Source of the DNA: a virus
DNA length: 64,000 bases
IMG/VR virus record: IMGVR_UViG_3300043137_000338
Reading direction: 5' to 3' (one strand)
Below the pieces are notes generated by a model. That model searched no databases and was not told the origin of the DNA. It saw only the letters and a program-made list of their open reading frames with translations. The position numbers were made by a program, and so were the translations under genes. Positions within the stretch are counted from its first letter, which is position 1, and every line of letters begins with the position of its first letter. Positions 11,150 to 62,628 of this stretch are shown here, in pieces.

Positions 11150-11668
11150 ATGTTGAATTTCGCTGACCTGACCATGGCTCAAAAGAAGCTGATCGTTGCT
11201 TACATCGAGCACACTCCCTCTATTAAGACCAATCCCGAAGTGACGCTCAAACTGGTCCATGCCATCTTTATGGACCTGGCTGAAAAGCGTGAATCTGGGG
11301 GCGTCAAAGTTGGTTACCCGAACTGGCTGTTCCCGACGAATAAGATTTCCCGTGGCTTGTATCAGCTGCCAGTTCCCACTGATGCCGAGCTGTCTCAGTA
11401 CGCTCAGGATTGTGCCGGCAAGTCTGTTAAGGCTCCGAAGGCAGTGGTCGTGAAGGTACCCAAGGCTCCGAAGGTCGTAGTCGCCAAGACTCCCAAGGCA
11501 CCGAAAGCACCTAAGGCACCGAAGGTTGTGCCTGCTACGGAATCTGAGGATGCTCCCGTCGTTAAGAACAAGAATCGTCTCATCGACGCTATCGGTGAGT
11601 CGGCTGCCTACGACGAAGATCTTGAAGACTTCAACGCTATTCTTCGCACTCACGGTATTGAACTTTAA
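11150..11668 (+). CDS. basic protein with (K)APK tandem repeats (histone H1/AlgP-like tail)
   Basis: ATG 11150 preceded by AAAAGGA; repeats VKAPKAVVVKVPKAPKVVVAKTPKAPKAPKAPKVVPA. Confidence 0.55.
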   Translation: MLNFADLTMAQKKLIVAYIEHTPSIKTNPEVTLKLVHAIFMDLAEKRESGGVKVGYPNWLFPTNKISRGLYQLPVPTDAELSQYAQDCAGKSVKAPKAVVVKVPKAPKVVVAKTPKAPKAPKAPKVVPATESEDAPVVKNKNRLIDAIGESAAYDEDLEDFNAILRTHGIEL

Positions 11669-11732
11669 TTATGCGTATGCAGGGGATCCATCTCTCCTGC
11701 ATATTTTATCACTTGATGGACAAGGAAACTAT

Positions 11733-11978
11733 ATGAACTCAAAGCAAGAACTTTTTAGCTATCTAAACACCGGCTCTAGCATCACTGCCAGCCAAATTTC
11801 ACTTTTCTTTGGACTGAAGAACCCTCATGGCGCAATCCATCAATTGCGCGGCGAGGGTCATTGCATTTACAGCAATAAAACTTCTCAGGGTACTGTTAAG
11901 TATCGCATTGGAAAGCCCAGTAAGCGTATGGTCCGCGTGGTCCATGCTGGTCTTGGTACTTATCTTTTCACTGCCTGA
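11733..11978 (+). CDS. small putative DNA-binding protein
   Basis: ATG 11733 preceded by AAGGAAAC; an upstream hairpin GCAGGGGATCCATCTCTCCTGC then ATATTTTAT acts as a terminator for the previous gene; the track ORF 11526..11978 is an out-of-frame extension. Confidence 0.4.
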   Translation: MNSKQELFSYLNTGSSITASQISLFFGLKNPHGAIHQLRGEGHCIYSNKTSQGTVKYRIGKPSKRMVRVVHAGLGTYLFTA

Positions 11979-11983
11979 TAATT

Positions 11984-12328
11984 ATGGCTACTGTAGATGA
12001 CATTAAAGCATCTCAGCTAGCCACTAGCGGTGGGCGAAAGTTTGACGGCGGTAAACTCCGTTATGGTTTGATCCCACCGCTAGCCATGGCAGAGATGGTT
12101 AAGGTTCTCACATTTGGTGCTGAGAAATATGAACCAGACAATTGGAAAGTTGTGCCGGATTCTTTGACTCGATATTTCGATGCAATGGAACGTCATATCT
12201 GGGCGTGGAAAATGGGCGAGGATCTAGATCCAGAATCTGGAATCCATCACCTGGCTCATGCTATGTGTTGTTTGGCTTTCTTGTATGAACATGACGTTTT
12301 ATACTCAAAGGAACCTACTTGTGATTAA
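11984..12328 (+). CDS. MazG-like / DUF550-type nucleotide pyrophosphohydrolase
   Basis: Motifs FDGGKLRYGLIPP and FGAEKYEPDNW typical of phage dNTP pyrophosphohydrolase N-domains (remembered family, not searched). Confidence 0.45.
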   Translation: MATVDDIKASQLATSGGRKFDGGKLRYGLIPPLAMAEMVKVLTFGAEKYEPDNWKVVPDSLTRYFDAMERHIWAWKMGEDLDPESGIHHLAHAMCCLAFLYEHDVLYSKEPTCD

Positions 12329-58501: not shown

Positions 58502-58574
58502 GCAACTTTAGCTGATGTGGTCATAGCGGTGGTTTGAAGAGCCATTGAAGCAGGTTCGATCCCTGCAGGTTGCA
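58502..58574 (+). tRNA. tRNA-Phe (GAA)
   Basis: Acceptor GCAACTT/AGGTTGC, anticodon loop TTGAAGA, T-loop TTCGATC, CCA encoded. Confidence 0.7.
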
Positions 58575-58582
58575 CCAATAAT

Positions 58583-59716: not shown

Positions 59717-59790
59717 GCGTCTTTAGCACAACTGGATAGTGCACTGGGCTACGAACTCAGAGGTTGGGGATTCGAATTCCTCAGGACGCA
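59717..59790 (+). tRNA. tRNA-Arg (ACG)
   Basis: Acceptor GCGTCTT/AGGACGC, anticodon loop CTACGAA, CCA encoded. Confidence 0.7.
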
Positions 59791-59800
59791 CCAAACAAAT

Positions 59801-59889
59801 GGAAAGTAATGCAGCGGGGTTGGTCCTGCGACCAGCCTTGAAAACTGGGTTCTCAGAAATGGGATGGGGTTCGACTCCTCTGCTTTCCG
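59801..59889 (+). tRNA. tRNA-Ser (UGA), type II
   Basis: Acceptor GGAAAGT/GCTTTCC, anticodon arm CCAGC CTTGAAA ACTGG, long variable arm, CCA encoded. Confidence 0.7.
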
Positions 59890-59898
59890 CCAAATTAT

Positions 59899-60108: not shown

Positions 60109-60193
60109 GGAAGCGTGGCAGAGTGGTCTATTGTATCTGTCTAGAAAGCAGCCGACTCGAAAGGGTCCGTGAGTTCGAATCTCACCGCTTCCT
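60109..60193 (+). tRNA. type II tRNA (Ser-like), anticodon loop CUAGAAA (nominal anticodon AGA; identity uncertain)
   Basis: Acceptor GGAAGCG/CGCTTCC, D-loop GAGTGGTCTAT, variable hairpin GACTC GAAA GGGTC, T-loop TTCGAAT. Confidence 0.5.
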
Positions 60194-60223
60194 CCCTTGA
60201 GTTGATGTCAAGACTCGAACTTT

Positions 60224-60249
60224 TATAAATAGTTACATAGGAGGAAACT
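60224..60249 (+). promoter_or_regulatory. late promoter TATAAATA + AGGAGGAAAC cassette
   Basis: CTTTTATAAATAGTTACATAGGAGGAAACTATG. Confidence 0.7.
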
Positions 60250-60876
60250 ATGTACTATACTGTTTATAAAATAACGAATCGAATCAATGGTAAGATCTAT
60301 ATTGGATCACATAAAACCAAAGATTTGAATGACAATTATATGGGTTCTGGAAAGTATCTTAAATACTCTCAAGAGAAGCATGGTATAGAAAATTTTACCA
60401 AAGAAATTCTTTTTGTTTTTGATACTCCAGAACTTATGTACGCAAAAGAAGCTGAGATTGTTAATGATGAATTCCTTGCTGAAGAAAATACATACAATCT
60501 AAAGCTAGGTGGATATGGTGGGTTTGATTATCTAAATGCTTGGAAGGAAAATCCGACACATTCTGCTGACCATTACTTAAAGATGTCTTTGCGATTGAAA
60601 GAAAAATATCCAAATAGTCCTATGTACGGACGTAAACATTCTGAAGATTCTAAAAGTAAAAACAGTCAATCTAATCTTGGTAATCAAAGGTTTCTTGGGC
60701 GTAAACATTCTGACGAAACTAAACAAAAAATGCGCTATAGCGCATTGGAAAAACATAGTAAAGATAAAAATTCGCAGTTCGGAACTATGTGGATAACCGA
60801 TGGTTTGGAAAACAAAAAGATCAATAAACTACACGAAATTCCTGATGGTTGGCGTCGTGGTAGAGTGATAAATTAA
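60250..60876 (+). CDS. GIY-YIG homing endonuclease (SegB-like, in tRNA cluster)
   Basis: YKITNRINGKIYIGSHK GIY-YIG motif, repeated NUMOD3-like GRKHSEDSK / GRKHSDETK. Confidence 0.8.
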   Translation: MYYTVYKITNRINGKIYIGSHKTKDLNDNYMGSGKYLKYSQEKHGIENFTKEILFVFDTPELMYAKEAEIVNDEFLAEENTYNLKLGGYGGFDYLNAWKENPTHSADHYLKMSLRLKEKYPNSPMYGRKHSEDSKSKNSQSNLGNQRFLGRKHSDETKQKMRYSALEKHSKDKNSQFGTMWITDGLENKKINKLHEIPDGWRRGRVIN

Positions 60877-60902
60877 GTATCTTCGCATACTTCAGATGGG
60901 TC

Positions 60903-60931
60903 TTGACTTTTGATGAATTGTGTAGTAGAAT
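60903..60931 (+). promoter_or_regulatory. sigma70-type promoter TTGACT..N18..TAGAAT
   Basis: Preceded by hairpin AAGTATCTTCGCATACTT 60876-60893. Confidence 0.45.
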
Positions 60932-61038
60932 AGAAACATATGAATATGAATGGGAAGAACAAGAACTTGTTCTTTCGTTGATTAACAAATGGAGAAACGG
61001 TGATCGATTCTCTGCTAATGATTATAGGAGGAAGTCAC

Positions 61039-61618
61039 ATGCCAGCAGTATTTTTAGTATCTGACACACACTTTCGGGCATAGTGGAGTATGCAGATTCA
61101 CTGAGGCAGACGGAGTGACTAAGATTCGACCGTGGACTGATCCAGAAGAAATGGATGAGGAAATGGTCAAGCGATGGAACGAAACCGTCAAGCCAAACGA
61201 CAAGGTTTATCACTTAGGTGACGTTGTCATTAACCGCAAGTCGTTAAGTATTATGAGCCGGTTAAATGGTGACAAGGTTCTGATCAAGGGTAACCATGAC
61301 ATCTTCAAGTTAGAGGAATATACTCAATACTTCAGAGACATTCGTGGTAGTCATGTGATGAACGGTATGATTTTAACTCATATCCCTCTGCATCCAAGAC
61401 AATTATATCGTTTCGGTACTAACATTCATGGTCACTTACATACCAATCGTGTTATGTTTGACGACAAGGAAATGGGTGAGATTATCGATCCGCGTTACTT
61501 CTGTGTTTGCGTTGAACAAACAGATTTTCGCCCTATCTTATTTGAAGACGTAATTAAGCGTATCAAAGAACAGGGTGGTACCGTGGGTTTCAAGAACGGT
61601 AATGGTCCAGTGATGTAA
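61039..61618 (+). pseudogene. calcineurin-like metallophosphoesterase interrupted by a +1 frameshift at UUU CGG G (61072-61078)
   Basis: Frame 1 gives MPAVFLVSDTHF then R A stop; frame +1 continues GHSGV.. and carries GNHD and GHLH motifs; removing C61075 restores DTHFGH. Confidence 0.6.
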
Positions 61619-61730
61619 GAATTGGAAGATGATCTCGGTGCTTCCGTTCTCCCGAGTTAGAATAACTGATATCGTTTCAGTAAGACGGAGCCAAATTTAG
61701 GAGGATTACGGTTTCGTAAACTGTTATTTT

Positions 61731-61767
61731 TATAAATAGATGTATACTAATTATAAGGAGAAACAGT
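61731..61767 (+). promoter_or_regulatory. late promoter TATAAATA + AAGGAGAAAC cassette
   Basis: TTTTTATAAATAGATGTATACTAATTATAAGGAGAAACAGTATG. Confidence 0.65.
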
Positions 61768-62181
61768 ATGAATACTAACGAAAAGGGTGTCCGTGGTTTA
61801 ATTAAAGTAATTGACGATCTACAGAGCAATGGTTATTATGTATTTAATGCATTCGATGATCATTCTCCTGTGGATGTTATAGCGATGGATAAAACTGGAA
61901 AAACATTCAGGATTCAGATAAAGTATCGTCAAGCCACTGTAAAAAAGAACAAAGGCAACACATACAATCTTGGAGCGTTTTCCATAGTTAATTCTAAAAA
62001 AATTGAAATAGATCGTAGTTTAATCGATGGATGGGCAGTATATATGGCAGACGATAATAAAGTTGTGTATATTCCTGTTAAATCTATGGAAGGTAAAAAA
62101 GAAACTACGTTATATGGTAGTGAAGTTTATGGAGAGTTGACAGAGTGGCAATGTGCTGGTTTGCTAAACCAAGACCACTGA
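61768..62181 (+). CDS. putative PD-(D/E)XK-like nuclease (mobile endonuclease candidate); its last 51 nt are the 5' part of tRNA-Ser
   Basis: ..DVIAMDK..FRIQIK.. D..(D/E)xK-like core; the C-terminal residues ..YGELTEWQCAGLLNQDH are encoded by the tRNA-Ser(GCU) acceptor, D and anticodon arms. Confidence 0.45.
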   Translation: MNTNEKGVRGLIKVIDDLQSNGYYVFNAFDDHSPVDVIAMDKTGKTFRIQIKYRQATVKKNKGNTYNLGAFSIVNSKKIEIDRSLIDGWAVYMADDNKVVYIPVKSMEGKKETTLYGSEVYGELTEWQCAGLLNQDH

Positions 62182-62217
62182 GTAATCGGTGCAAGCGTTC
62201 GATCCGCTTACTCTCCG
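62131..62217 (+). tRNA. tRNA-Ser (GCU), type II
   Basis: Acceptor GGAGAGT/ACTCTCC, anticodon arm CTGGT TTGCTAA ACCAA, T-arm AAGCG TTCGATC CGCTT, CCA encoded. Confidence 0.7.
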
Positions 62218-62228
62218 CCAAGAAGTAT

Positions 62229-62317
62229 ACCTCGATAGTTTAACGGTAAAACGGCGGATTTATATCCCGTAAGCAACAGATAATTGGTTCATCCGAGTTC
62301 GATTCTCGGTCGAGGTA
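62229..62317 (+). tRNA. 89-nt tRNA-like gene, anticodon loop TTTATAT (UAU, Ile/AUA) with 22-nt variable region
   Basis: Acceptor ACCTCGA/TCGAGGT, D-arm GTTT AACGGTA AAAC, T-arm CCGAG TTCGATT CTCGG, CCA encoded; extra length unexplained. Confidence 0.45.
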
Positions 62318-62325
62318 CCATATAT

Positions 62326-62545: not shown

Positions 62546-62618
62546 CTGGCGTTCGTATAATGGATTAATACAGTGCTCTTCTAAAGCACGAATAGGGGTT
62601 CGATTCCCTTACGCCGGA
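62546..62618 (+). tRNA. tRNA-Arg (UCU)
   Basis: Anticodon arm GTGCT CTTCTAA AGCAC, T-loop TTCGATT, CCA encoded. Confidence 0.7.
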
Positions 62619-62628
62619 CCAGATTGAT

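Follow-up and report, generated by a model that had tools for sequence, protein, structure and literature searches.

A one-base insertion linked to a homing endonuclease gene at a candidate +1 frameshift site in a phosphoesterase gene of T4-like phages

Gene 60 of phage T4 was for decades an isolated curiosity. In the T4 mobA/gene 60 system, an HNH-family endonuclease of 269-279 amino acids is encoded by a gene that overlaps the downstream open reading frame, out of frame, by 8-32 nucleotides (nt) (bioRxiv 10.1101/2022.08.31.505936; PMC5009743). According to Bonocora et al. (2011), as cited in bioRxiv 10.1101/2022.08.31.505936, the recoding insert blocks self-nicking and translation bypasses the insert. 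The best current explanation of gene 60 is that the bypass insert keeps a mobile endonuclease cassette from cutting itself (bioRxiv 10.1101/2022.08.31.505936). The locus described here may follow a similar logic. It lies in IMG/VR virus record IMGVR_UViG_3300043137_000338, a stretch of 64,000 nt termed the window below, and consists of a metallophosphoesterase gene (positions 61039-61618) whose frame is broken by one extra C, together with the remnant of an endonuclease gene that overlaps its start.

Shifts of the ribosome by +1 are known from several other settings. PA-X of influenza A virus arises by a +1 shift at UCC_UUU_CGU, which occurs at very low efficiency (Firth et al., 2012, as cited in PMC5009743). 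In bacterial cells, UUU_Ynn sequences are described as notably +1-prone, and the cases that PMC5009743 refers to include E. coli argI (Fu and Parker, 1994; Schwartz and Curran, 1997) and Yersinia YopN-TyeA. Inserts of a single nucleotide that are compensated by +1 frameshifting have been reported in the mitochondria of glass sponges, of birds and turtles and of ants, and as the 'savior indels' of herpesvirus TK (PMC5009743). In glass-sponge mitochondria, insertion of a C or T before GGA gives rise to the very rare codon CGG or UGG (PMC5009743).

The layout of the phosphoesterase locus is given in Table 1. From ATG 61039, frame 0 has the codons ATG CCA GCA GTA TTT TTA GTA TCT GAC ACA CAC TTT CGG GCA TAG and thus encodes MPAVFLVSDTHFRA followed by a stop. 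Removal of C61075, or of one T of the TTT codon, results in a 192-amino-acid protein. DTH is coded in frame 0 (61063-61071) and the remaining motifs lie in the +1 frame, so that a single polypeptide is formed only given a +1 shift. The joined protein matches PHROG 547, annotated 'phosphoesterase' (E=1.4e-50), and PDB 1xm7, an Aquifex phosphoesterase with the N-terminus ..SDTHFYH (E=7e-7). It scores 22.1 bits against Pfam PF00149 (Metallophos), barely over the cut-off of 21.5, and 23.8 bits against PF12850, which is under the cut-off of 27. By these matches it is a calcineurin-like metallophosphoesterase. The downstream part is 97% identical to the intact protein P0001, and no second phosphoesterase paralogue that would make the broken copy dispensable was found in the window. 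A first-pass annotation made from the letters of the window had proposed the ribosome-binding site, the ATG, the early frame-0 stop, the +1 continuation and the repair by deletion of C61075. All of this is borne out, and the break itself was described correctly; what had been missed is that the break is part of a mobile homing-endonuclease cassette.

Table 1. Features of the phosphoesterase locus and of the neighbouring tRNA genes (positions in the window)
Feature	Positions	Strand	Remarks
tRNA-Phe(GAA)	58502..58577	+	normal 7-nt anticodon loop
tRNA-Arg(ACG)	59717..59793	+	phage-encoded
Second homing endonuclease gene, GIY-YIG + NUMOD3, SegE-like	60250..60876	+	in the window took the place of the first ~230 codons of the HNH-like gene
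Endonuclease remnant (Zn-finger/NUMOD3/HNH-like), last 53 codons, third reading frame	60903..61064	+	stop TGA 61062-61064; 26-nt overlap with the phosphoesterase gene
Cassette-derived (co-converted) tract: endonuclease 3′ end, phosphoesterase 5′ end and extra C	60903..61087	+	3′ boundary between 61087 and 61203
Ribosome-binding site AGGAGG of the phosphoesterase gene	61026..61031	+	7-nt spacer to ATG 61039; inside the last codons (..Y R R K..) of the endonuclease open reading frame
Phosphoesterase open reading frame, part 1, frame 0, 12 codons MPAVFLVSDTHF	61039..61074	+	metal-binding D9 and H11 of motif I (DxH)
Proposed +1 shift site UUU_CGG_G	61072..61078	+	extra base is C61075
Frame-0 tail CGG GCA TAG	61075..61083	+	rare Arg codon; stop TAG 61081-61083 two codons on
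Phosphoesterase open reading frame, part 2, +1 frame, 180 codons, GHSGVCRF... to TAA 61616-61618	61076..61618	+	motifs GDxxxNR (GDVVINR), GNHD, GHLH
tRNA-Arg(UCU)	62546..62621	+	decodes AGA and AGG

The extra base recurs in independent assemblies. One Logan assembly of SRR11805301, which occurs in 2 samples, matches the window at 100% identity over 60163-62265, extra base included, and an ENA contig (L085) that is 99.3% identical to the window carries the same base. Elsewhere in the window the open reading frames are long and intact, other overlapping pairs of open reading frames are distinct genes, and there are no further split genes; no sign of general indel errors was seen in the window. 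Intact relatives are represented by the 80 closest IMG/VR homologues (73-85% amino acid identity), which are the best 80 of 593 stretches encoding a relative. In all 80, a single frame runs through CAY TTY GGN CAY. The nearest relative, P0001 at locus L084 (97% amino acid and 93% nucleotide identity), is also intact, and the presumed endonuclease target in an intact gene of the L084 type is GATACGCACTTTGGTCAT.

The same insertion was detected in 5 IMG/VR contigs and 1 JGI contig by pattern scans for DTH-F-(any extra base)-GH-x-GVC, and further alleles were traced in a protein database via the upstream endonuclease gene. In this way 11 distinguishable frameshifted alleles were collected from many metagenomes (JGI, ENA, Logan and IMG/VR). 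They are designated A (the window, L081 and L085), B (L082 and L095), C (L083), D (L092-94), E (L099), F (L100 and L101), G (L102-105), H (L110-112), I (L109) and J (L113); L103 and L111 have the cassettes of G and H, respectively, joined to different gene bodies. CAC TTT C GG is present in all 11 alleles, and in all of them the +1 frame is open across the recovered stretch; alleles A-G have the full open reading frame with all motifs. It had been suggested that related phages with the same break plus other inactivating mutations would speak against recoding. The same break was indeed found in relatives, and no second lesion (extra stops or indels, lost motifs, lost start or ribosome-binding site) accompanies it in any of the 11 alleles. 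Gene callers annotate the frameshifted alleles as open reading frames of 158-180 amino acids that begin at non-conserved internal GTG or ATG codons, and the corresponding proteins in public sets are mis-annotated as N-terminally truncated. At L113 1100-1323 the endonuclease gene is 5′-truncated, an extra A directly precedes the phosphoesterase ATG and the N-terminus is diverged (MPSVFLIADTHF), yet the insertion (TTT C GGG) is the same.

Without exception, the frameshifted alleles are linked to a free-standing endonuclease gene of 274-280 amino acids, or to a remnant of one, whose 3′ end overlaps the phosphoesterase start. The full gene is found at the locus in L082/L095, where it encodes 274 amino acids (P0121), and in L085, L092-94, L099, L100 and L102-105, and in L109 and L110-112 the endonuclease gene stops at the equivalent overlapping position. 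In every frameshifted allele, the stop codon of the endonuclease gene or remnant is 11 nt 5′ of the extra C. The endonuclease gene is degraded and the insertion nonetheless kept in the window, L083 and L113. Members of the endonuclease family have an N-terminal CxxC...C zinc finger and a C-terminal domain with invariant RDH...H..N...N..K. NUMOD3 was detected in 26 of 38 members (best E=6e-11), and the family profile matches the DNA-binding domain of I-TevI (1i3j, E=0.009). Pfam gave no HNH assignment for the endonuclease, and a fold search was weakly supportive of one. Pairwise synonymous divergence (dS) in the endonuclease lineage ranges from 0.4 to >1.5, with ratios of nonsynonymous to synonymous substitution (omega) of 0.10-0.24; these values mark it as an old lineage subject to purifying selection. 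In IMG/VR, a single-protein search for endonuclease loci returned the query's own contig only.

A sister endonuclease lineage with 57-59% amino acid identity (L106-108, L114 and L116) ends in ..YRRD and a stop codon 0-2 nt before the ATG of the phosphoesterase gene. The phosphoesterase genes beside it are intact, with DTHFSH or DTHFGH and without the insertion. The whole endonuclease family seems to be specialised on the 5′ end of the phosphoesterase gene, with the frame broken in one sub-lineage only. Because the sister lineage adjoins intact genes, the 8-codon extension of the endonuclease into the phosphoesterase gene and the extra C are derived, having arisen in one sub-lineage that later diversified widely.

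A GIY-YIG homing endonuclease gene of a second family also occupies the locus (Table 1). L095 has a 79% identical copy of it located 3′ of the phosphoesterase gene, at 11539-12231 (reverse-complemented), and L085 retains the HNH-like gene upstream. As the GIY-YIG gene is upstream in the window and downstream in L095, the sequences indicate that two endonuclease families compete for one locus and that the GIY-YIG gene overwrote most of the HNH-like gene in the window.

Mosaic alignments show that the endonuclease gene travels into different gene bodies together with the phosphoesterase 5′ end and the extra C. When the window is compared with the intact L084, there are 27 differences from -30 to +48 relative to the ATG, none from +49 to +163 and 4.5% divergence thereafter. 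L102 and L103 display zero differences in the ~900 nt upstream of the ATG, which comprise the endonuclease gene, and none up to position +105 of the phosphoesterase gene; beyond that they are ~10% diverged. The mosaic breakpoints are thus just 3′ of the insertion, and the moving unit takes with it the first 48-105 nt of the phosphoesterase gene. Each frameshifted gene body is nearer to intact relatives than to other frameshifted ones; the bodies are polyphyletic and always more diverged than their endonuclease genes. The endonuclease, the 5′ end and the insertion have spread by recombination into intact alleles of related phages. The GC content of the carriers is 31-40% (31% in L095, 40% in the window, L093 and L102), and from this wide spread it follows that the cassette crossed between quite different phage lineages.

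The insertion created the sequence CAC TTT CGG (CACTTTCGG), which is invariant in all 11 alleles of the cassette lineage despite an endonuclease dS of up to >1.5. Among the 80 intact alleles, 54 have TTT and 26 have TTC, and 36 have CAT. Silent sites around the shift site (D9, T10, G13, H14, G16, V17, C18 and F20) do vary. All four bases occur after CGG; in the +1 frame this leaves Gly unchanged, and in frame 0 it gives A/S/P/T changes. No sense codon is rarer in the window than CGG (22 of 18,498 codons; 1.19 per 1000; 2.8% of Arg codons), which has rank 1-7 of the 61 sense codons in the carrier contigs across their range of GC content. Single-base insertions that would yield a slippery XXX_N followed by a rare or stop codon number 3 of 2,292 in the gene, or ~0.18% averaged over 80 alleles and about 0.15% as an overall figure, and the observed insertion is at the sole such compensable site in the 5′ region. 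The context of the insertion is far from chance expectation.

The surroundings of the site are also maintained. The ribosome-binding site AGGAGG is unchanged in 10 of 10 aligned cassette alleles, and the N-terminal peptide of these alleles is MP[AS][VI][FY]L[VI][SA]DTHF. In the phosphoesterase frame, codons 1-12 have 6 silent and 5 conservative changes, which are mostly replacements in the overlapping endonuclease tail (rough binomial p ~0.03 against 25% silent expected). The frame-0 stop varies in position among the cassette alleles, and allele D continues for 11 codons. The phosphoesterase family as a whole comprises 7,934 proteins at E<1e-40 and is strongly constrained, with omega of 0.06-0.1. 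The site combines a P-site codon that can re-pair, a rare and presumably slow A-site codon and conservation with both open reading frames open.

The tRNA genes of the phage are consistent with slow decoding of CGG. The phage Arg tRNAs are ACG and UCU only; neither the window nor the related loci yielded a tRNA-Arg(CCG). With standard wobble (I34), tRNA-Arg(ACG) decodes CGU, CGC and CGA and not CGG. From its anticodon, tRNA-Phe(GAA) would pair by G:U on UUU and by G:C on the +1 codon UUC. Anticodon loops of 6 or 8 nt were absent from the tRNAs that ARAGORN predicted for the window and for 13 related loci.

It is proposed, with a confidence that leans slightly towards acceptance, that the locus represents a mobile cassette of homing endonuclease plus one-base indel in T4-like freshwater phages, in which a protective indel is compensated by +1 frameshifting at UUU_CGG_N. 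The cassette spreads by recombination, that is by homing, into intact phosphoesterase alleles. The insertion falls in the conserved DNA that codes for DTHFGH and, judging from that position, would shield carriers from the endonuclease. Some ribosomes would stall at this point, where tRNA-Phe occupies UUU and the A site presents the very rare CGG; tRNA-Phe would then slip +1 to UUC, and GGN (Gly) would be decoded next. The predicted shift product is the family sequence ...SDTHF-GHSG..., with the junction ...VSDTHFGHSGVCR. The endonuclease activity and its target, the protection by the indel, and the frameshift with its efficiency are all inferred from sequence. It is a tempting if slightly doubtful thought that an endonuclease lineage has evolved a one-nucleotide 'immunity indel' exactly at a place where bacterial ribosomes could slip +1, such that the DNA target is broken and the enzyme is still made.

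Several observations weigh against this proposal. Folding of the downstream RNA gave no conserved or unusually stable structure (z -0.6 to +1.4), and no Shine-Dalgarno-like element is seen in the sequence just 5′ of the shift site. As no stimulator is evident, the efficiency is likely to be low, in the order of a few per cent perhaps, and it could be very low. The cassette is rare, the insertion having been found in 5 IMG/VR contigs as compared with 593 stretches coding for a relative (the best 80 all intact), and this rarity suggests a cost. No pair of alleles with vertical co-descent of cassette and body was present in the sample. Since the bodies are polyphyletic and some transfers very recent, intact downstream open reading frames are no proof of selection after the frameshift, and much of their conservation evidently stems from recent recombination into intact alleles. 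Omega between gene bodies is 0.05-0.16, a value to be read in the light of their recombinant and polyphyletic nature, and the window and L085 differ by too few changes for an estimate of selection. Pairwise dN/dS between frameshifted alleles had the look of strong purifying selection but was rejected as proof of it because of these recombinant, polyphyletic bodies. The argument that the endonuclease decays while the phosphoesterase does not is weak (three events, p ~0.2), because the losers are recent derivatives: the window and L083, which lost most of the endonuclease gene, are little diverged from endonuclease-keeping alleles. The bias in codons 1-12 is likewise weak, and selection for homology with target alleles could mimic the pattern.

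The insertion could be a mere self-protection or hitch-hiking mutation of a selfish cassette. The invaded genes would then be dead and would look intact just because all observed invasions are recent, the cassette persisting by jumping into new intact alleles. Such a knock-out, which is considered unlikely but deserves serious attention, would account for the polyphyletic gene bodies that are always more diverged than their endonuclease genes, the identical cassettes on different bodies, the rarity among relatives and the lack of a stimulatory RNA element; the window and L083 are so little diverged from endonuclease-keeping alleles that there was little time for decay. It fits less well with the 11 alleles, none of which has a second lesion although in three of them (the window, L083 and L113) the endonuclease gene is degraded, or with an insertion at one of only 3 perfectly compensable positions in 2,292. 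The slippery TTT, the start, the ribosome-binding site and the N-terminal codons are retained in a lineage with dS >1. Loss of a gene whose family is widespread and has omega of 0.06-0.1 should be costly, yet carriers occur in many samples and at 31-40% GC, and the sister endonuclease lineage does without breaking the gene. An isolated fresh pseudogene, one of the options raised in the first-pass annotation, is incompatible with an insertion that is old and shared, as the linked endonuclease dS of 0.4 to >1.5 indicates. The recoding option raised there has fared better: codon rarity, tRNA content, the improbable context and conservation of the site support the UUU_CGG geometry, which falls short of proof.

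Translation of the downstream open reading frame from an internal start such as GTG 61115, which would yield a truncated protein alone or with a separate 14-amino-acid peptide, is improbable. The 158-180-amino-acid open reading frames of the gene callers and a GAGG 8 nt 5′ of GTG 61115 in the window are in its favour, but the codon is GTA in L082/L095 and GTT in L099, called starts vary by allele, and the N-terminal 12 codons and the ribosome-binding site remain conserved; moreover, the truncated product would have neither strand 1 nor the DxH metal ligands, which all relatives and PDB 1xm7 have. It is more improbable still that the frame is restored by a tRNA that reads a quadruplet (UUUC or CGGN), by a slip on CGG_G, or by transcriptional slippage or editing. 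Runs of TTT and GGG are too short for polymerase slippage; a tRNA-Arg(CCG) cannot re-pair on GGN, and a slip there would yield DTHFR.HSG and not the family sequence. The absence of 6- and 8-nt anticodon loops from the ARAGORN predictions (window and 13 related loci) argues against a quadruplet-reading tRNA, for which the large phage tRNA array running past the window end and the mention of phage tRNAs with expanded anticodon loops in PMC5009743 could be cited. The insertion does lie between a TTT run and a GGG run, where one extra base could in principle enter a short homopolymer context by a sequencing or assembly error. This possibility, also raised in the first-pass annotation, is excluded by independent assemblies and at least 11 diverged alleles and keeps only a vanishing probability: the same base is in the 100% identical Logan assembly from 2 samples, in the 99.3% identical ENA contig and in 10 further diverged alleles, and the window has no other broken genes.

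The cassette with its candidate +1 site resembles T4 mobA/gene 60 in several respects. Both have a free-standing endonuclease of ~270-280 amino acids whose gene has an out-of-frame 3′ overlap, of 26 nt here, with a frame-breaking insert a few tens of nt downstream in a conserved metal-binding region. As in T4, the insert is found in every endonuclease carrier and also in alleles with a lost or degraded endonuclease gene, and a GIY-YIG gene sometimes substitutes for the endonuclease gene. The phages are T4-like in both cases, with clean mosaic boundaries and multiple recent transfers. The insert differs, at 1 nt compared with 50 nt in gene 60, and the target gene is not split in two. A +1 slip is proposed here, whereas gene 60 uses take-off and landing on GGA codons with nascent-peptide and hairpin signals. 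In T4, cleavage, protection and recoding were shown by experiment, whereas the phosphoesterase cassette is known from sequences alone and the likeness drawn here is one of logic rather than of demonstrated homology to MobA. Because the insert is one base and the 50-nt gap and GGA codons are absent, the cassette is not a member of the T4 mobA/gene 60 element family.

With PA-X, the candidate site shares a UUU codon in the P site with a C after it, an A-site codon that is a rare CGN codon for Arg, and the lack of an evident RNA stimulator. PA-X differs in that translation is eukaryotic and the shift yields an extra product, whereas the phosphoesterase shift product would be the sole useful one; the A-site codon here is CGG, and the E-site codon is CAC and not UCC. 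The bacterial UUU_Ynn sites have in common with it the tetranucleotide UUU_C, bacterial ribosomes and slow A-site decoding. As far as the passages cited here describe them, those bacterial cases are errors or optional fusions, none of which is tied to a mobile element or is the sole route to an enzyme. The compensated one-base inserts listed above likewise lie in conserved genes, and those of glass-sponge mitochondria, with a rare CGG or UGG created before GGA, display an identical local geometry. Organelle inserts are vertically inherited under relaxed selection, whereas the phosphoesterase insert is horizontally mobile and linked to an endonuclease.

If the proposed frameshift and protection hold, the locus would be, after T4 gene 60, the second known case in nature where self-protection of a homing endonuclease is coupled with recoding, and the first by way of +1 frameshifting. 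Recoding for endonuclease self-protection would then be a general evolutionary route, here taken with a minimal insert of one base. The locus would also offer a stimulator-free and naturally conserved UUU_CGG +1 site in a phage, with ~70 nt of naturally selected sequence in which hungry-codon frameshifting and the influence of the phage tRNA set can be studied. Gene callers annotate such genes as truncated open reading frames, and many phage genomes may harbour comparable mobile indels unnoticed.

The window is a fragment of a T4-like myovirus with every gene on the + strand. In the helicase region it shares ~70% identity with Methylophilales phage Melnitz and with cyanomyoviruses, and near and distant DNA searches of GenBank phages gave a best identity of 68%. 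The phosphoesterase gene is enclosed by an array of 20 tRNA genes at 58.1-63.9 kb, which extends beyond the window end. The array has several unusual members. At ~59834-59896 there is the 3′ half of a tRNA-like sequence (..GGTTCGACTCC..CCGCCA) that is 92% identical to the L084 DNA directly 5′ of the intact phosphoesterase gene; it is not called by ARAGORN and is possibly an unusual or degenerate tRNA. A tRNA-Ser with anticodon AGA, odd for bacteria and phages, is called at 60109-60195, and a Ser(aga) call is also present in L092-94. The tRNA-Ile(tat) at 62229-62320 is called at 92 nt, which is abnormally long. Of further interest is a PD-(D/E)XK_5 (PF11645) open reading frame at 61768-62181, whose 3′ end overlaps tRNA-Ser(gct) (62131-62220) by ~50 nt. 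An open reading frame of this type is also found near the sister endonuclease locus, and it may represent a third mobile nuclease in the tRNA array.

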